Part shown: positions 1,136 to 12,173 of the stretch, one piece after another | Numbering within the stretch: the stretch's first letter is position 1 | Layout: each line of letters begins with the position of its first letter | Origin: an uncultured cyanobacterium | GTDB lineage: Bacteria > Cyanobacteriota > Cyanobacteriia > PCC-9006 > JAAUQQ01 | DNA: 64,000 nt | Direction: 5' to 3' | NCBI GenBank assembly: GCA_963718615.1 | Contig: OY970368.1 | Location: 992,001 to 1,056,000, forward strand | The notes under the pieces: model-generated | What the model saw: the letters and a program-made list of their open reading frames with translations, nothing else | What the model was told of the DNA's origin: nothing | The model's database searches: none | Translations under genes and position numbers: made by a program

Positions 1136-1737
1136 AGCAGGCGATCGCAGTCTCTACGAACACAATTTGGCAAAATTTGGCCAAGGATTTGGCCCATGAG
1201 CTCTGGCCCATAACTAAACAGATGGGCCAGAGGAGGCAAGCTGTCGTGACCTAGGATTGCCCCCATTTTTTTAAGGTTCGCCTCCAATAAACCGTTCCTC
1301 TCCTACCACGGTAAAACAGTCTTCCGGGTGCGTGGGTGCTAAAACCAACATCTTTAACAATTTATTTCGACGATATTGGTTTTCCAGAGATAAATTTTGA
1401 TCATCCGTCAACCTTGGGGGCATGCTATTGCCTTCTTCATCAGTTTAGGGAGTTTTGCAAATCTTAGGGGGTTCTCAAAACTTAAGAAAAATTTAACTTT
1501 TCTTTTAGCCAATCAACGTGCTGAATAACGTTCTGAATTTTGTAGTGCCCAAATTGTCGCGAAAGTCTGCAAAAAATCAAAAGAAAGCGCGATTTTTCGC
1601 CCTGCTTGAGATTCTCTCGCTACAGTAGGGGTATCCAAAAGTTAAGCGCTGAAGCGAAAACGTTCAAGATCGAGTCGCACCGTATCGCCTTTCCCATCAC
1701 AACCCGTTGTGCTTACGCTTGCAACTATTCCGTCCCC

Positions 1738-2691
1738 ATGACTGAATCTCTTTCCCCTTTTGCCTCTCGGCTTCCTTTATTCTCGATTGTTGCGAAACCC
1801 GCACCGGATCAGGTCCATTGGTTAGCGGGACGATTAGCCGTTGCTACGCTGATTTTGATGGCTATTGGCAGCGCGACCCGTGTGATGAATGCCGGACTCG
1901 CCTGTCCCGATTGGCCTCTGTGCTACGGCCAGTTCCTACCCAGCCAGCAAATGAATGTGCAGGTTTTTTTGGAGTGGTTCCACCGACTGGATGCTTCGGT
2001 GGTCGGCTTTGGCACCATTGCCCTGCTGGGTCTTGCGGTTGGGAAGCGGCGATCGCTCCCTCATTGGGTGCCCTGGGCCGCAGCCTTGGCCTTATTTCTG
2101 GTGGTCTTTCAGGGTATTTTGGGCGCGCTGACGGTGACAGAACTCCTACGGTTTGACCTGGTCACGGCCCATTTAGGCACTGCCCTTTTGTTTTTCTCGG
2201 TGCTGCTGATGCTTACCCTTGGCCTCATGCCCTACCAAGCCGTTGGCTCAGCCGGGCGGCTGCGCTGGTTAGGTTTGGTCGCGACGGTCTTGGTCTATGG
2301 TCAGAGTCTCTTGGGCGGTGTGGTGGCATCCCGCTGGGCGCTGCACCAGTGCTTTGGCGGAGGGGAACTCTGCCTGGTAATGAATAGCCACATTGCTGGG
2401 GTTTTGCCCGCCACCCTGGCGACCCTGGGCCTGGTGGTGTGGACGGGGCGATCGCCTGCCCTTTCCCGGCCCCTGCGCCAGCTTGCCCTAGGAGCCGGAT
2501 TTGCCCTGCTGGCTCAGGTTTGCCTCGGGGTTTTGGCGCTGCGGCTGCGGCTCCAGGTTGAGCCTCTGACCGTCACTCACCAACTGGTTGGAGCCGTTCT
2601 ACTGGGGCTTTTGCTGGCCTTTACGATTTTGGCTTGGCGGGATCATCTCGAAACCCCCACCATTCTGCCCACTGAATCCCCATCCCTCTAA
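1738..2691 (+). CDS. ctaA: Heme A synthase (COX15/CtaA)
   Basis: [15 protein letters not shown] and TAHL motifs; likely start is ATG 1738 inside the ORF 1606..2691. Confidence 0.93.
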
Positions 2692-2705
2692 TTTTTGACG
2701 GCACT

Positions 2706-3698
2706 ATGCAAGAAACGTTTAATGCAGCCCCTCGTCTCCACGCCAACGGCCTGCAAGTTCTTCAAAGCTATTACCAACTGACTAAACCGCGCATCATTCT
2801 TCTGTTGCTGATCACGACCACCGCAGGCATTTGGGTGGCTTCCCAGGGCCAAGTGGATACCACGCTGCTCTTGGTGACGCTGGTGGGAGGAGCCCTGGCC
2901 TCGGGATCGGCCAATGCGATCAACTGCTACTACGATCGCGACATTGATTTCATCATGGAACGCACCCGCTGGCGACCCATCCCCTCGGGCCGAGTGCAGC
3001 CGAGGGACGCGCTGATTTTTGCCGCTGGGTTGGCGATCGCCTCCTTTGGTTTGCTCACCCTGTTTGCCAATCTACTGGCGGCGTTCTTGGCCATGGCCGG
3101 GATCGTTTTTTACGTCTTGATCTATACCCATTGGCTCAAGCGCCACAGTGTCCAAAATATTGTCATCGGGGGAGCGGCAGGAGCCATTCCGCCGTTAGTC
3201 GGCTGGGCTGCGGTCACGGGCGACTTGAGCTGGGCTCCTTGGCTGATGTTTTTAATTATTTTCCTTTGGACTCCGCCCCATTTTTGGTCCCTGGCGCTGA
3301 TGATTCGCGATGACTATGCCTCCGTCGGTGTTCCCATGCTGCCGGTGGTTGCCGGAGAGGAAGAAACCGCTTGGCAAATCTGGGTCTATTCGATCTTGCT
3401 CGTGCCTGCCACGCTTTTGCTGGTGTATCCGGTGGGGAGCAATGGTCTGATTTATGGGGCAAGTGCTCTTCTCCTCGGGGTCCAGCTTTTGGTGAAGGCT
3501 TGGCGATTATTGCGAGACCCGAGCGATCGCGTTCTGGCTCGTGCCCTCTTCAAATACTCGATCCTTTATCTGATGCTGCTTTCCGCCGCCATGGTCGTGG
3601 ATGTCCTGCCTAACATTGCCGCCTACTCCGAGCAGCTCCTCGGCGAAGTTCAAGGGGTGTTGGCCGCCATTCCCATCAATCAATTTCTCAGCCTGTAG
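2706..3698 (+). CDS. ctaB: Protoheme IX farnesyltransferase (heme O synthase)
   Basis: LTKPRI, YYDRDID..MERT..RPIPSG and WTPPHFWSL motifs. Confidence 0.96.
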
Positions 3699-4480: not shown

Positions 4481-5781
<1,301 letters not shown>

Positions 5782-6002: not shown

Positions 6003-6851
6003 ATGTCTAATTCCCCCACGCAACGAAGCGAAACCCGCTGCTTCGGAGGCTCCTTAGGTTTTTATCGTCATTGGTCTATGGTTTGCCAATGCGAAATGAA
6101 TTTTGCGATCTATCTACCTCCTCAAATCAAAAAAGAGCCTGCTCCTGTTTTGTACTATCTGTCGGGGCTCACCTGTACGGAGGAAAACTTTATTACAAAA
6201 GCTGGGGCACAACGCTATGCGGCGGAGCAGGGACTGATTCTCGTGGCTCCGGATACCAGTCCTCGGGGGTTGAATTTGCCGGGGGACGCGGAAGCTTGGG
6301 ATTTTGGGGTAGGAGCGGGCTTTTATGTAGATGCGACGCAAGCGCCCTGGCATGACCATTACCGGATGTACAGCTATGTGGTTGAGGAATTGCCTGGGTT
6401 GATTGGGGCACATTTTCCTGCGGATATCAGTCGCCAGGGGATTTTTGGCCATTCCATGGGAGGTCATGGGGCGTTGATTTGTGCGCTGCGCAATGGCGAT
6501 CGCTACCGTTCGGTCTCAGCCTTTTCACCGATCGCGGCTCCGATGCGATCGCCCTGGGGTCAAAAAGCCTTTACCCATTATCTGGGGCCAGACCCGACCA
6601 ACTGGAAAGGGTACGATGCCAGCGAACTGGTGGGTACGGCTAATTTTGGTGGCAGTATTTTGATTGACCAGGGAACAGCCGATGGCTTCCTGGAAACCCA
6701 GCTCATGCCCCAGGTCTTTAAGCAAGCCTGCGAAGAGGCTGGACAGTTGCTGACGCTGCGGATGCAGCCGGGTTATGACCACAGCTATTACTTCATTGCC
6801 ACGTTTATGGAAGACCATATCAAACATCACGCGACAGCTTTACTGGATTAA
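6003..6851 (+). CDS. fghA: S-formylglutathione hydrolase
   Basis: YLSGLTC, GHSMGG nucleophile motif, YDHSYYFI. Confidence 0.95.
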   Translation: MSNSPTQRSETRCFGGSLGFYRHWSMVCQCEMNFAIYLPPQIKKEPAPVLYYLSGLTCTEENFITKAGAQRYAAEQGLILVAPDTSPRGLNLPGDAEAWDFGVGAGFYVDATQAPWHDHYRMYSYVVEELPGLIGAHFPADISRQGIFGHSMGGHGALICALRNGDRYRSVSAFSPIAAPMRSPWGQKAFTHYLGPDPTNWKGYDASELVGTANFGGSILIDQGTADGFLETQLMPQVFKQACEEAGQLLTLRMQPGYDHSYYFIATFMEDHIKHHATALLD

Positions 6852-6863
6852 AACCTGTGTACT

Positions 6864-7871
6864 TCAGTCAACTCCTGAGGTCAGAATGAGATTGAAAAGA
6901 TATCCTACACTAATGATTCCTAAGGTTGTGATGCTAACAAACAAAGTCAAAAGCTGAGGACGAAGGACCCTCTTGAGAATGATCATTTGTGGCAGGGACA
7001 AGGCTGTGACAGCCATCGTAAAGGACAACACCGTGCCCAAAGGCATACCTTTATTGACTAAGGCTTCTGCAATGGGGAGGACCCCAGCCACGTTGGTGTA
7101 GAGGGGAACCCCCATCAAAACAGCAATGAGCACGGCGAAGGGATTGCTGGGGCCTGCCCATTGGCTAATTAGATCGGTGGGGGCATAACCGTGAATTCCA
7201 GCGCCGATGGCAATGCCGATAACGACATAGGGCCAAACTGAGCTGAGGATTTCAACGGATTGTGATTGAGCACTTTTCCATCGCTGTGCCCAGGTTTCTG
7301 GAGCTAAATCAGTCTCTATGTCTAAGGCTTTCATCTGATAGGTATCCCGAGCTTTTAAGATTAAGGGATCCACCCATTTCTCTAGATTTAACTGACCGAT
7401 GATAAACCCAGAAACAATGGCTAAAGTTACGCCAAAGCCGATGTAGAGAAGCGTTGCTTGGAGACCAAATAAACTCCAAAGCAGAAAGACAGCGATCGCA
7501 TCCACCATTGGTGCCGAAATCAAGTAAGAAAACGTGACACCGAGGGGAACTCCTGCCCCTAAAAATCCGATAAATAAAGGAACAGCAGAGCAGGAGCAAA
7601 AGGGGGTAAATGCGCCCAATAAACCCGCTAGAATATTGCCTGAAATTGTCAATTTTCCCGCCAGAAACTGGCGCACTTTTTCGGGGGAGAGAAAACTTTG
7701 TAGTATCCCAATGACAAAGCTAATGACGACCAGTAAGCTTAAAACCTTCGGCACATCATAAAGGAAAAAATGGAGACTGGCACCGAGTTGAGAGTCAGGA
7801 GATAGCCGAAATACGTAGCTGACAATCTGGGTGGCAAGCCAGTCGAAGGGATAAAAGAGATCAAACATCAT
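6864..7871 (-). CDS. ArsP/DUF318-family permease
   Basis: TPFCSCS motif, GVTFSYLISAP, multiple transmembrane segments. Confidence 0.88.
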   Translation of the reverse strand: MMFDLFYPFDWLATQIVSYVFRLSPDSQLGASLHFFLYDVPKVLSLLVVISFVIGILQSFLSPEKVRQFLAGKLTISGNILAGLLGAFTPFCSCSAVPLFIGFLGAGVPLGVTFSYLISAPMVDAIAVFLLWSLFGLQATLLYIGFGVTLAIVSGFIIGQLNLEKWVDPLILKARDTYQMKALDIETDLAPETWAQRWKSAQSQSVEILSSVWPYVVIGIAIGAGIHGYAPTDLISQWAGPSNPFAVLIAVLMGVPLYTNVAGVLPIAEALVNKGMPLGTVLSFTMAVTALSLPQMIILKRVLRPQLLTLFVSITTLGIISVGYLFNLILTSGVD

Positions 7872-7904: not shown

Positions 7905-8147
7905 CTAGACTTGTAAGAGGGATTGAATCTCTGTGCTGCTCATAACCTTTCCTTTGCTGACGATTTTGCCATTGATCGCTAAGGCTGGGGTGGATAGGAT
8001 GCCACGCTGGGCAATTTCAAGGGGATCGGTAATGTGCAAGACTTCTGCGTCTAAATTGAGGTTGGCGATCGCCTCCTTCGCATTCGCTTCCAGTTGTTGA
8101 CATTTCTTGCAGCCTGTTCCTAATACTTCAAGTTTTAGCTGAATCAT
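7905..8147 (-). CDS. Small redox-active disulfide protein (thioredoxin family, MTH895/ArsE-like)
   Basis: GTGCKKC and STPALAING motifs. Confidence 0.9.
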   Translation of the reverse strand: MIQLKLEVLGTGCKKCQQLEANAKEAIANLNLDAEVLHITDPLEIAQRGILSTPALAINGKIVSKGKVMSSTEIQSLLQV

Positions 8148-8228: not shown

Positions 8229-8660
8229 CTAAAGCTCTTGGGGGTCTTGCTCTAGAACAATGCATTGATGCTGTGGATCGGGGTGGTCTAGATTTTGAGC
8301 ACATTGTTCAAGGAGCGGAGCCAGTTCGTTGTGGAGAGATTGCAATTGTTGGATTTGCGCTTGAATGGCTTGGGTCTTTTGCTGGAGCCGTTGATATACT
8401 GCTTGACAGGTGAGCGATCGCCCCTCCTTCAGCGCCAGAATTTCCTGGATTTCCCCCAAGCTTAGCCCCAAGGTCTTTGCCCTGGTGATAAATGCCAGCC
8501 GCTCCACATCCGCTGGACTATAGAGCCGATAACCGGATGCATTGCGTTGAGGAATTGGAATGAGGCCGATCCGCTCATAAAAATAAAGGGTCTGCGGATT
8601 AAGTCCTAATTTTTGCGCCACCTCCCCCACTTGAAACATCGATTCTGTTGCTTTACCCAC
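8229..8660 (-). CDS. Heavy-metal-responsive MerR-family regulator
   Basis: N-terminal HTH (TLYFYERIGLI..RNASGYRLY); three C-terminal Cys residues. Confidence 0.92.
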   Translation of the reverse strand: MGKATESMFQVGEVAQKLGLNPQTLYFYERIGLIPIPQRNASGYRLYSPADVERLAFITRAKTLGLSLGEIQEILALKEGRSLTCQAVYQRLQQKTQAIQAQIQQLQSLHNELAPLLEQCAQNLDHPDPQHQCIVLEQDPQEL

Positions 8661-8686: not shown

Positions 8687-8719
8687 ATCCTAATCCTTAA
8701 TACCCAGGTATAAGGTCAA
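8687..8719 (-). promoter_or_regulatory. MerR-type promoter/operator upstream of the merR gene
   Basis: TTGACC-N21-TAGGAT containing the dyad CCTTATACC/GGTATTAAGG. Confidence 0.7.
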
Positions 8720-8793: not shown

Positions 8794-9762
8794 TTAGAGC
8801 AATGAGATTCGGGTTTCATAGAAAGGCTCCACTGGACCATTCACCACCATAGCCCCTACGGGTCCTGCGGCCTGCTTAAAACGAGGGTCGAGATGGGAAT
8901 TTTCGTGGTCCCACACGGACTCCCATACCCCATGCATTAGATAAGCCCTCAAGCTTCCATCGGGAAAGGCATTGCGGAGGATTTCTGTGGTCACAGCTTT
9001 ATGGTAATGGCGATTATTGGGAGCACCGGGAAGCCCGATGCCATCCTGGGTGGTGGTGGGCTGGTAGGTTTGCTGGGCGATCGCGAGCAGTTCTGCGGTT
9101 TTAGCCTCAAAGAGGAGGAGGTCAGCATCTTGGATGAAGACATGATTTTCGACGGTCACATAGCCGCGATCGGGCAAATCTGCGGGACGGCGCAAAAATG
9201 CCAAAATCTCTTCGGGTTGGCGATAAATGGCGTTGCGATCGCCCGCCACCACCGTCTGATAAATCCCTCGATAGGATTCCATCGCCATCGGCGTTTTTTG
9301 AGGACCCTCTGGCGTCTGGCGATAGGCATAGAGGTGAGGGGCAATCACTGTGTCAAACCAGCGATCGACCTGGGCTTTTTGTAAGTGCTCATAGTCCGAA
9401 AACCGCACAAACAGCGAATAGAAATAGGGCAATGACCCATCAGCCACCGCATCCGCATAAGCCGTGGCCAACCTGCCCTTGTAGGCTTCCGGGTAGTTTT
9501 TTACCATCGTCGAGTCCCCCGTCATTTGTTTGAGCGAAAGACTGAGGAAACCAGAGGCCTTTTGTAGCGATCGCGCCTGGGTTTGAATCGCCCCCATCAA
9601 AGCCTGATTCTCCGGGACAGCCACGCGAATTTCTGCATAAAACGTTATGGCTCCCGTTGGGGCCTGAGCCACTGTCTGCGCCGCTTGGGCAGGAGATGTG
9701 ACTGCAAAACCCACAGTGGAGAGTCCAGCACCCGCACACAGAAAATGACGACGATTGAGCAT
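8794..9762 (-). CDS. Tat-exported protein, sulfur oxygenase reductase (SOR)-like fold
   Basis: NRRHFL twin-arginine signal; WxxxWDHENSH...GPVEPFYE resembles the SOR iron-site motif. Confidence 0.7.
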   Translation of the reverse strand: MLNRRHFLCAGAGLSTVGFAVTSPAQAAQTVAQAPTGAITFYAEIRVAVPENQALMGAIQTQARSLQKASGFLSLSLKQMTGDSTMVKNYPEAYKGRLATAYADAVADGSLPYFYSLFVRFSDYEHLQKAQVDRWFDTVIAPHLYAYRQTPEGPQKTPMAMESYRGIYQTVVAGDRNAIYRQPEEILAFLRRPADLPDRGYVTVENHVFIQDADLLLFEAKTAELLAIAQQTYQPTTTQDGIGLPGAPNNRHYHKAVTTEILRNAFPDGSLRAYLMHGVWESVWDHENSHLDPRFKQAAGPVGAMVVNGPVEPFYETRISLL

Positions 9763-9797
9763 AGAACAGTGGCTCCCTTAAATTCAGCATCACCGTG

Positions 9798-9829
9798 ATG
9801 CTAAACCCTATAGTGAGGTACAAGGTCAA
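9798..9829 (-). promoter_or_regulatory. MerR-type promoter/operator upstream of the Tat protein gene
   Basis: TTGACC-N20-TAGCAT with imperfect dyad ACCTTGTA/TATAGGGT; shares TTGACCTTRTACCT with the 8687-8719 site. Confidence 0.72.
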
Positions 9830-9941: not shown

Positions 9942-12173
9942 ATGGCGAAAAAACACAGCTTTTCTTCCCGGATTCAAAAGGCCATTCATTCTGAAGATAC
10001 AATTCATAACGGTTCTGCCAACGACTCCTTTGATCAGGTCTTAGCAAGAGCTCGCGTGGGGCGACGGGGGTTTCTCAAAGGCAGTTCATCCCTGGTGGCG
10101 GCTTCTATGCTGGGAACAGGGCTGTCTTTTCTGGCCGACTCAGCCCATCCTGCCCGGAAAGTTGCTCAAGCTACTACAAAGGCTTCTCTGAGCTTCAATC
10201 CAGTGGCCAAGACTATCACTGATAGCCTGACTGTTCCGGAGGGATATACGGCGAGAGTTTTATTGGCAACGGGTGATCCGATTCATCGGGATGTTACTCC
10301 CTATAAGAATGATGGGACCGACGATGACTTCGCAGGGCGGGCCGGCGATCACCATGACGCGATGCAATACTTCGGCATGGACTCCTCGGGTACGAAATGG
10401 GACTCTAAGGGTAGCGATCGCGCCCTCCTCTGTATAAACCACGAAGTTTGTGAAGACCTGGGCTTCATCCATCCCAATGGCCCAACGGACTATGGCCCCG
10501 AAGCGATCGCCCCTCGTCCTCCCACAGAAATCGATAAGGAAGTTGATGCCCATGGAGTGAGCGTGATTGAAATCCTGCGGCAGGGTGACACTTACCAGAT
10601 CAATCGTGACTCCCGGTACAACCGACGAATCACGGGCACAACCCTTTTTGAAATCACGGGGCCTGCTCGTCGCAGCCCGATGATGGCGACCGTTTTTTCT
10701 CCCAGTGGCGAACAGACCCGTGGAACCCTGAACAATTGCGGACATGGATACACGCCTTGGGGAACCTTTCTCAGTGGCGAAGAAAACTGGGCTGGATATT
10801 TCCATCGTCGCGAAGCGGATACGGCCAGAACCACCAAGGACGTAGCCTCGTTCAAACGCTACGGTATTGGTTCAGCGACTTCGGGGCGTTACAACTGGTC
10901 ACGAGCTGGAGCCACCGATAGCACCGACCACTATCGCCGTTGGGACGTCGGACAAACAGGCAGCAGCGCTGAGCAAGATTTTCGGAATGGGGCCAATGCC
11001 TTTGGTTGGGTTGTGGAAATTGATCCCTTTCATCCCAATGCTACTCCTAAAAAACGTACTGCCCTAGGTCGATTCGCCCATGAGGGAGCCTGGTCTGCTC
11101 CAGTGGTTGCTGGACAGCCCCTTGTGTTTTATATGGGCGACGATGCTCGCAACGAATACATCTATAAATTTGTTTCCGCCGCTGCCTGGGACCCTCAAGA
11201 TGCCACCAGAGGGCTGGAGGCTGGCAACAAGTATCTGGATGCCGGTACATTGTATGTGGCCCAATTTCAGGATGATGGGACTGGGGAGTGGTTGCCCCTA
11301 ACCCTCAACAATCCCAAGATTGCCAACTACACGACCTATCCCTTCGCGGATGAAGCTGATGTGGTAATCAATGCCCGTATCGCCGCCGATGCCGTTGGAG
11401 CCACGAAGATGGACCGTCCTGAGTGGGGCGGGGTCAACCCGGCCAATGGAGAGGTTTATATCACGCTGACCAACAATGTCTCAAGCAGTAATGGGCGAGG
11501 GTTTAAGACTCCCCTTGATGCCGCTAATCCCCGTTTCTATGGGGACGAGAAAGGCTCCAAAACCACTCAGGGGAATGTTAACGGCCACATCCTTCGTTGG
11601 CGTGAAACCGCTAGCAACTCTGCCGCGCTGTCCTTTTCCTGGGATGTTTATCTATTTGGAGCCCAGGCCGACGCAGAGGCGGACGTCAACCTTTCGAATC
11701 TCACGGATGAAAACGATTTTTCAAGCCCTGATGGCCTTTGGTTTAGCGAAGCAGTACCCGGTTTGCTATGGATTCAAACCGATGATGGTTATTACACCGA
11801 TCGTACCAATTGCATGATGCTAGCGGCAATCCCCGGAGCCGTGGGGGATGGTGGCACAAAAATGGTGACCAATAAGGCTGTACCCACGAATAGCAATTCG
11901 GATCAAACCCTCCAAACCTACCTGGGGCAGCCCGCTAGCCCAATGGTGTTACGGCGCTTTTTGGTTGGTCCTCGGGATTGTGAAATCACTGGCATCACTG
12001 AATCGCCCGATGGCAAGGTCCTTTTCGTGAATATTCAGCACCCCGGCGAGAATAGCCCCTCGGTTACTGATCCGAGTCAATTTACAAGCCATTGGCCGGA
12101 TGGGGGAAATGCGCGTCCCCGCTCTGCAACGGTCGTGATTACGCGCAATGATGGCGGGAAGATTGCGGTTTAG
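9942..12173 (+). CDS. phoX: Alkaline phosphatase PhoX (Tat-exported)
   Basis: GRRGFLK Tat motif; NNCG..TPWGTFLSGEEN, GRFAHE, MDRPE, SPDG, NIQHPGE motifs. Confidence 0.94.
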   Translation: MAKKHSFSSRIQKAIHSEDTIHNGSANDSFDQVLARARVGRRGFLKGSSSLVAASMLGTGLSFLADSAHPARKVAQATTKASLSFNPVAKTITDSLTVPEGYTARVLLATGDPIHRDVTPYKNDGTDDDFAGRAGDHHDAMQYFGMDSSGTKWDSKGSDRALLCINHEVCEDLGFIHPNGPTDYGPEAIAPRPPTEIDKEVDAHGVSVIEILRQGDTYQINRDSRYNRRITGTTLFEITGPARRSPMMATVFSPSGEQTRGTLNNCGHGYTPWGTFLSGEENWAGYFHRREADTARTTKDVASFKRYGIGSATSGRYNWSRAGATDSTDHYRRWDVGQTGSSAEQDFRNGANAFGWVVEIDPFHPNATPKKRTALGRFAHEGAWSAPVVAGQPLVFYMGDDARNEYIYKFVSAAAWDPQDATRGLEAGNKYLDAGTLYVAQFQDDGTGEWLPLTLNNPKIANYTTYPFADEADVVINARIAADAVGATKMDRPEWGGVNPANGEVYITLTNNVSSSNGRGFKTPLDAANPRFYGDEKGSKTTQGNVNGHILRWRETASNSAALSFSWDVYLFGAQADAEADVNLSNLTDENDFSSPDGLWFSEAVPGLLWIQTDDGYYTDRTNCMMLAAIPGAVGDGGTKMVTNKAVPTNSNSDQTLQTYLGQPASPMVLRRFLVGPRDCEITGITESPDGKVLFVNIQHPGENSPSVTDPSQFTSHWPDGGNARPRSATVVITRNDGGKIAV

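Follow-up and report, generated by a model that had tools for sequence, protein, structure and literature searches.

A cyanobacterial CT0912-family gene beneath a MerR-type promoter, and the profile-level homology of its C-terminal half to the iron-binding half of sulfur oxygenase reductase

We analysed a stretch of 64,000 nucleotides from an uncultured cyanobacterium (assembly GCA_963718615.1, contig OY970368.1, positions 992,001 to 1,056,000), referred to as the window, and all coordinates below are positions within it. The gene under study (the target gene) lies on the minus strand at 8794..9762, starts with ATG, is preceded by a Shine-Dalgarno-like AAGGGAG (9773..9779, minus) and encodes a protein of 322 amino acids. 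Downstream of it, on the same strand, follow the genes of a MerR-family regulator, a thioredoxin-like protein and an ArsP_1 permease, in that order. Its product clearly belongs to the CT0912 family, which combines two Pfam domains: PF21931 (ABM-like) is found at residues 38-125 (127.3 bits, E 3.3e-37; 9388..9651, minus) and PF22087 (CT0912-like_C) at residues 171-318 (202.8 bits, E 3e-60; 8809..9252, minus), the gathering score being 27 for both. The first is an N-terminal domain of the ferredoxin-like type. The crystallised member of the family is CT0912 of Chlorobium tepidum (PDB 3GN6), which is described as an "ORFan protein with a ferredoxin-like domain repeat". It matches the target protein over residues 28-318 (phmmer E 1.9e-100, 291 aligned residues), and the AlphaFold2 (AF2) model of the target protein matches it in Foldseek with E 1e-42, TM 0.84/0.90, a root mean square deviation of 1.7 and 55-57% identity. 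The AF2 model (66 relatives) has a mean pLDDT of 89.7, with residues 1-30 below 50. A reading of the target as a protein of unknown fold was rejected, since it belongs to a named and crystallised family, which an earlier note on this DNA had overlooked. NCBIfam has no model for the protein, and a full-text literature search for CT0912 and 3GN6 returned no paper about the protein or its function. In the literature found, the term 'SOR-like' denotes true genes of sulfur oxygenase reductase (SOR). The window contains 85 HIP1 octamers, several of which are located within the target gene, and this marks the host as a cyanobacterium.

The distribution of the CT0912 family was determined from several searches. 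A word-indexed search returned 343 proteins at E<=0.001; among the matches listed, both Pfam domains are present in 120 of 120 family proteins, and all are named hypothetical except one which carries an automatic label. A profile search of 1.84 billion cluster representatives gave 51 at E<=0.001, the short ones among them (43-250 amino acids) covering only part of the CT0912 profile; no bridging family, no SOR and no other architecture is found among these 51. The family is compact and isolated. A CT0912 relative is encoded at 78 loci from species genomes, the hosts of which are mostly sulfur oxidisers and dwellers of acidic, sulfidic or soda habitats (for example Thiotrichales, Acidithiobacillus, Thiomonas, Halothiobacillus, Chromatiaceae, many Campylobacterota, Hydrogenothermaceae and Sulfobacillus). 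A small number of hosts belong to the cyanobacteria, mycobacteria and Bacteroidota. Of 300 other sampled genomes of the window's own phylum none contains a CT0912-family gene, which makes it a rare accessory gene there.

Concerning export, residues 1-27 (9682..9762, minus) fit a twin-arginine signal peptide: the N-terminus MLNRRHFL, with RRHFL starting at residue 4, is followed by a hydrophobic core and by AQA↓A, where the arrow marks the predicted cleavage site. Pfam TAT_signal does not match the target protein at E<=10; it matches 19 of 66 relatives at E<=1, and the pattern of two arginines, any residue and two hydrophobic residues is found in the N-terminal extension of 106 of the 132 full-length relatives. 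TatC, a component of twin-arginine translocation (Tat), is encoded in the same genome (221.7 bits). Based on these features, the mature protein may be exported via Tat, and as the host is a cyanobacterium the compartment may be either the periplasm or the thylakoid lumen. The only cysteine of the protein is C9, which is located within the signal, so that the mature part is cysteine-free. The N-terminal domain contains YAEIRV at residue 42, LQKASGFL at 66 and GDS at 82, and the C-terminal domain contains W280-x3-WDHENSH (284-290) followed, after exactly 18 residues, by GPVEPFYE (309-316). The earlier note had reported the twin-arginine signal, a mature region without cysteine and these motifs, and all of this holds, including the order and spacing of the motifs.

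The C-terminal domain was compared with SOR (PF07682), of which true genes were taken from two genomes with a CT0912-like gene of their own; their relatives were collected and 35 sequences were aligned. A larger hhalign comparison was made between 132 CT0912-family and 117 SOR sequences. When the whole families are compared by hhalign there is a single local match, between target residues 278-317 and SOR residues 79-120 (P 3.8e-5); when the halves are separated, the C-terminal half of the family matches the N-terminal half of SOR with P 2.8e-6, and in the larger comparison with a probability of 94.7% and P 5.7e-8 over 115 columns. Controls with reversed profiles gave P 0.15-0.55. In 117 of 117 SORs the profile hidden Markov model (HMM) of the C-terminal domain outscores all of the reversed and shuffled controls, and without exception its match covers SOR residues ~78-125. 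Conversely, 122 of the 132 family members are matched better than the controls by the HMM of the SOR N-terminal half, the match being located each time at residues ~277-317. Weak Pfam matches are found in both directions (SOR in 12 of 66 family members, CT0912-like_C in 15 of 35 SORs), and the target protein itself reaches 12.4 bits with PF07682, against a gathering score of 25, at residues 277-318 only. In the Foldseek ranking of PDB entries the SORs come next after 3GN6 (E 3.4e-10, TM 0.57). A lookup in the ESM-Atlas with the protein's own families excluded has a cluster of SORs of 345 amino acids as its top neighbour (0.92), which we use as a lead only. On the evidence of the profiles, the similarity in the C-terminal motif is beyond chance and the C-terminal half of the target protein is a remote homologue of the iron-binding N-terminal half of SOR. 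True SOR genes occur alongside the CT0912-like gene in two of the five genomes tested, one of which has two SOR copies (G002, the other genome being G004), and the two families are therefore not substitutes for each other.

During this comparison we also observed two SOR-family proteins of 344-345 amino acids (P0218 and P0235) which have twin-arginine-like signals at the N-terminus; TAT_signal matches two of the 35 aligned SORs, P0218 with E 0.0013. Both proteins keep Cys31, Cys101 and Cys104 as well as the iron ligands. SOR is regarded as cytoplasmic, although these two, judging by their N-termini, may be exported SORs.

The region common to the two families contains the candidate metal site (residues 277-316; 8815..8934, minus), which comprises H277, W280, D285-H286-E287-N-S-H290 and E312. 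In the alignment D285-H286-E287-N-S-H290 falls on S-H-E-E-M-H of SOR and G309-P-V-E312-P-F-Y-E on G-P-W-E-P-Y-Y-E, so that H286, H290 and E312 correspond to the SOR iron ligands His86, His90 and Glu114. These ligands and Cys31 are given as essential for SOR in PMC7398979. At the positions of the SOR cysteines the target protein has V208/F209 (Cys31), A299 (Cys101) and V302 (Cys104), none of which is a cysteine. K95, R120, N206, H207, E260, D285, E287, H290, D292 and R294 are kept in all 132 relatives, and H286, E312 and H277 in 131 of the 132; all of these residues are present in the target protein. The mature part is cysteine-free in 106 of the 132 relatives. About 30 polar residues, lysines and arginines included, are extremely conserved across both domains, and the ligand positions are invariant or nearly so, yet the family diverges down to 34% identity. 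We take H286, H290 and E312 as putative SOR-type metal ligands, which would cluster in space if the alignment with SOR is followed.

The N-terminal half gives a different picture. In hhalign it aligns with the SOR C-terminal half in register over 101-108 columns, although not significantly (P 0.045-0.063, against 0.15-0.55 for the reversed controls), and with the SOR N-terminal half out of register (P 0.055-0.069). With the HMM of the N-terminal domain only three SORs score above the best null, 80 of the 90 best matches being located within the SOR C-terminal half, and the reciprocal search of the CT0912 family with the HMM of the SOR C-terminal half has no signal. The generic ABM domain (PF03992), on the other hand, matches the YAEIRV...GAI...SGFL segment in 24 of 66 relatives (best E 7.2e-7), and in five of the five located matches it covers residues ~35-76 of the N-terminal domain (beta1-alpha1-beta2). 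PF03992 also matches 23 of 35 SORs. Eight SORs were examined for its position: one has no match, and of the seven located matches six are in the C-terminal half and one in the N-terminal half. ABM likeness is thus found in the N-terminal domain of the target protein but in the C-terminal half of SOR, which means that the order of the two types of half is reversed. Both families consist of a half with the metal site and an ABM-like half in opposite order.

These results bear on what the earlier note had proposed for the relation with SOR. The SOR motifs it cited are present in real SOR sequences, and the two further proposals that the C-terminal half is related to the SOR N-terminal half and keeps the iron-site His/His/Glu agree with our comparisons. 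One of the checks it had named, a profile comparison of each half with SOR, is significant for the C-terminal half and not for the N-terminal half. Its claim that the halves are swapped stands as a description of the order, which is indeed opposite in the two families; the specific tie between the N-terminal half and the SOR C-terminal half, on which it also relied, does not stand, as the generic ABM domain matches the quoted segment better. The reversed order does not distinguish strict circular permutation of one fused ancestor, which is unproven, from independent fusions. The view that two different barrel subunits were fused independently, and in opposite order, to give the CT0912 family and SOR, as opposed to one fused gene having been duplicated and then truncated, has, in our estimate, about an even chance: the N-terminal half resembles the SOR C-terminal half at no more than the generic ABM level and no intermediate architecture was seen among the 51 representatives, while the in-register course of that weak alignment and the concentration of the best N-domain HMM matches in the SOR C-terminal half speak for a closer relation.

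The genes downstream of the target gene form a module of the kind the earlier note had called a metal/arsenic-type cluster, and the description is borne out by their families. The first (8229..8660, minus) encodes a predicted metal(loid) sensor of the MerR family (143 amino acids), which matches the NCBIfam models MerR, CadR, ZntR and CueR below their cut-offs and contains Cys85, Cys120 and Cys133, all invariant in five of five cyanobacterial orthologues. The second (7905..8147, minus) encodes a thioredoxin-like protein of the MTH895/ArsE family (80 amino acids; TIGR00412, 92.7 bits against a cut-off of 62). The third (6864..7871, minus) encodes an ArsP_1-family permease of 335 amino acids, which clusters with PF03773 proteins and has weak NCBIfam matches, below cut-off, to SaoE and to the SO_0444 Cu/Zn efflux family. 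Upstream of the target gene there is a MerR-type promoter (9798..9829, minus), in which TTGACC and TAGCAT are separated by a 20-nt spacer that contains an imperfect dyad; promoters activated by MerR typically have a spacer of 19-20 nt with a dyad between the -35 and -10 hexamers. A near copy, a second MerR-type promoter/operator, precedes merR (8687..8719, minus). A standard sigma-70 scan, which assumes a spacer of 16-18 nt, finds nothing upstream of the target gene, as follows from the 20-nt spacer. The same layout (TTGACC, 20 nt, TAnnAT) is also found upstream of the homologue in five other cyanobacterial loci. The operator word TTGACCTTRTACC-N4-TA has exactly two sites in the 6.1-Mb genome, which are these two promoters, and its reversed control has none. 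Since the word occurs at these two promoters only, co-regulation of the target gene with the merR-thioredoxin-ArsP_1 permease genes by this MerR, whose binding is predicted, is well supported by sequence. A perfect inverted repeat, GCATCAC-G-GTGATGC (9787-9801, minus), extends over the -10 hexamer and the first part of the target gene's 5' leader, where it might serve as a second operator or form a hairpin in the leader.

Looking at the neighbourhood across genomes, tblastn finds an ArsP-like permease in the fetched flanks of 28 of the 78 loci, and the thioredoxin is found in those of 26. When only the 38 loci flanked by 4 kb or more on either side are counted, the permease is present in 20, the thioredoxin in 18 and both in 17; nearly all of these genes run in the same direction as the CT0912-family gene. 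The link of the family to this pair, and to ars genes, extends across phyla. Open reading frames were also clustered over 68 loci, the window included, and the cluster representatives were searched with Pfam and NCBIfam; one cluster (c6), an antisense open reading frame of the target gene itself, was removed before counting. The recurring neighbours are rhodanese (16 loci), CMD-family proteins (14), ArsR/SmtB regulators (13), ArsI/CadI-family enzymes (8, above the NCBIfam cut-off), ECF sigma factors (7), OsmC (6), ArsC-like phosphatases, SQR-like flavoproteins and chromate-transporter-like proteins (5 each), and Acr3-type SBF proteins and ArsB (4 each). As a group, these neighbours have to do with stress from thiophilic metal(loid)s and sulfur, some loci having a flavour of cation efflux, and the genomic context points to detoxification. 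In five loci (L055, L056, L057, L009 and L003), some from Campylobacterota and others not, the homologue is located beside the genes of an SQR-like flavoprotein and a chromate-transporter-like protein. This arrangement recalls the sulfide/arsenic co-regulated operons described in cyanobacteria.

The other neighbours in the window are of several kinds. The divergent neighbour of the target gene (9942-12173, plus) encodes a PhoX alkaline phosphatase of 743 amino acids (PF05787, E 6e-127) with a signal of its own, RRGFLKG; the two genes have a 179-bp intergenic region in common, and PhoX was not seen beside the homologues elsewhere. Abutting the permease gene are those of a zinc alcohol dehydrogenase (4514-5623, plus) and an S-formylglutathione hydrolase (6003-6851, plus; TIGR02821, 457 bits), which look like a formaldehyde-detoxification pair. 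COX15/CtaA and UbiA-family (heme O synthase-like) genes are found in tandem at 1606-3698 (plus) and belong to ordinary cytochrome oxidase assembly.

Taken together, the explanation we prefer, and to which we give somewhat better than even chances, is that the target gene encodes a Tat-exported metalloenzyme of the CT0912 family, controlled by MerR and acting as an oxidoreductase or oxygenase in metal(loid) stress. The mature protein would comprise two ferredoxin-like (dimeric alpha+beta barrel) halves fused to each other, and its mononuclear site would receive Fe(II) (or Mn) before the protein leaves through Tat. For His/carboxylate metalloproteins, export by Tat allows weakly competitive metals to be inserted while the protein is still in the cytoplasm. 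The protein would act, without a protein persulfide, on a small, soluble and probably anionic substrate, with which the invariant K95, R120, R294, N206 and H207 are consistent. The three-cysteine MerR sensor would drive both the target gene and the merR-thioredoxin-ArsP_1 permease genes, and the enzyme, induced by metal(loid) stress, would work outside the cytoplasm on what the permease handles; candidate substrates are a trivalent (methyl- or thio-)arsenical or a reactive sulfur compound. A bolder proposal is that the family forms a new class of extracytoplasmic, cysteine-independent SOR relatives, that is, Tat-exported non-heme iron enzymes with permuted SOR domain order which oxidise or cleave a toxic trivalent (methyl-/thio-)arsenical or sulfane sulfur after its expulsion by an ArsP-type permease; we put this forward tentatively, as possible but rather unlikely.

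Several observations weigh against the preferred explanation. The N-terminal extension is shorter than 15 residues in 12 of the 132 relatives, about half of the well-flanked loci do not have the permease, and in one metatranscriptome, in which 0.07 of the sampled words were present, nothing was found on the target gene (the same data set has two 151-nt contigs on the permease gene, at 7409-7691, and its coverage says nothing about expression either way). The CDF, HlyD and RND genes which recur near the homologues (13, 10 and 6 of the 68 loci, respectively) are heterogeneous, and together with the Cu/Zn efflux match of the permease they mean that the theme of the module may be cations and not arsenic or sulfur. 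Two-domain ABM monooxygenases rank nearly as high as SOR in Foldseek (E 3.4e-9 to 5e-7). Also, members of the family are present in Chlorobium tepidum, which is a strict anaerobe, and in anoxygenic phototrophs and purple sulfur bacteria, and such hosts speak against a reaction that strictly requires O2.

The cation theme leads to a serious rival, in which the target protein has no catalytic role and serves a Zn/Cd/Cu-type efflux module as a metal-binding buffer or chaperone in the periplasm, its His/Glu site binding the stressing cation. The best matches of the regulator (MerR, CadR, ZntR), the weak match of the permease to the SO_0444 family and the recurrence of CDF, HlyD and RND genes would fit such a role; a set of about 30 conserved polar residues across both domains is, however, more typical of an enzyme pocket, arsenic genes (ArsI/CadI, ArsB, Acr3, ArsC-like) are equally frequent neighbours, and Tat export suggests, as a general principle, a metal loaded before export and not captured outside. 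We regard the buffer or chaperone as a minority prospect that deserves to be kept in view. Less probable is a cofactor-free oxygenase of the generic two-domain ABM type, or another alpha+beta-barrel protein, in which the SOR-like motif is a metal-free ancestral relic. The PF03992 matches in the family and the Foldseek rank of the ABM monooxygenases would be explained in this way, but three ligand positions and an adjacent Glu have stayed invariant or nearly so despite the divergence of the family, and only the N-terminal domain, which is not the one with the ligands, resembles ABM; we consider this reading improbable. Finally, a genuine circularly permuted SOR which disproportionates elemental sulfur outside the cytoplasm is very improbable. 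In its favour are the retention of the iron ligands and the residues around them, the reversed domain order, the prevalence of the family among sulfur oxidisers and the existence of SOR homologues that carry Tat-like signals (P0218 and P0235). Against it, the Cys31 that SOR activity requires according to PMC7398979 is absent from the target protein, whose mature part is cysteine-free as in most relatives, which makes SOR activity proper very unlikely, the SOR Pfam score stays below its cut-off, true SOR and the CT0912 family coexist in two of the five genomes tested, and the similarity of the N-terminal half to the SOR C-terminal half is not significant.

For this window alone, the result is the annotation of a MerR-controlled CT0912-family gene. 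More broadly, SOR has so far been treated as an isolated family defined by its iron site together with a cysteine persulfide, and the motif of that iron site survives invariant in a compact, cysteine-lacking family, predicted to be exported and with a crystal structure already solved. The ties of this family to metal(loid) sensors, an ArsP-type permease and ars genes offer a route to possibly new detoxification chemistry; if an extracytoplasmic SOR-relative enzyme is indeed encoded, a missing periplasmic step would be added to arsenic and sulfur detoxification in sulfidic habitats. The family would also serve as a case study of a catalytic barrel scaffold re-used with its halves in opposite order.

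Four known systems can be compared with the target protein. ArsI C-As lyase and persulfide dioxygenase have non-heme Fe(II) in His/carboxylate sites and act on small arsenic or sulfur substrates with no catalytic protein persulfide; they are functional analogies only, as both are cytoplasmic and their folds (VOC and metallo-beta-lactamase, respectively) are unrelated to that of the target. The two-domain ABM-type monooxygenases (PDB 3MCS, 5F9P, 3F44 and 9KDP, PenE) have the fused double ferredoxin-like barrel in common with the target at 9-13% identity, the ABM likeness of the target being in its N-terminal domain, and we know of no conserved His/His/Glu site among them. SOR (PF07682; PDB 2CB2, 6QPA and 6M35) resembles the target in its alpha+beta barrel fold of two halves and in its His-x3-His...Glu iron site, which in both is flanked by the motifs W..(D/S)HE..H and GP.EP.YE. 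The metal half is N-terminal in SOR and C-terminal in the target; SOR contains Cys31, Cys101 and Cys104 whereas the target has none of the three; and SOR is a cytoplasmic 24-mer (a hollow sphere) whereas the target carries a Tat-type signal, which argues against a cytoplasmic location. The closest known system is CT0912 of Chlorobium tepidum, which has the same two-domain architecture and all of the invariant residues, and from which the target differs in being a cyanobacterial copy located beneath a MerR-type promoter.

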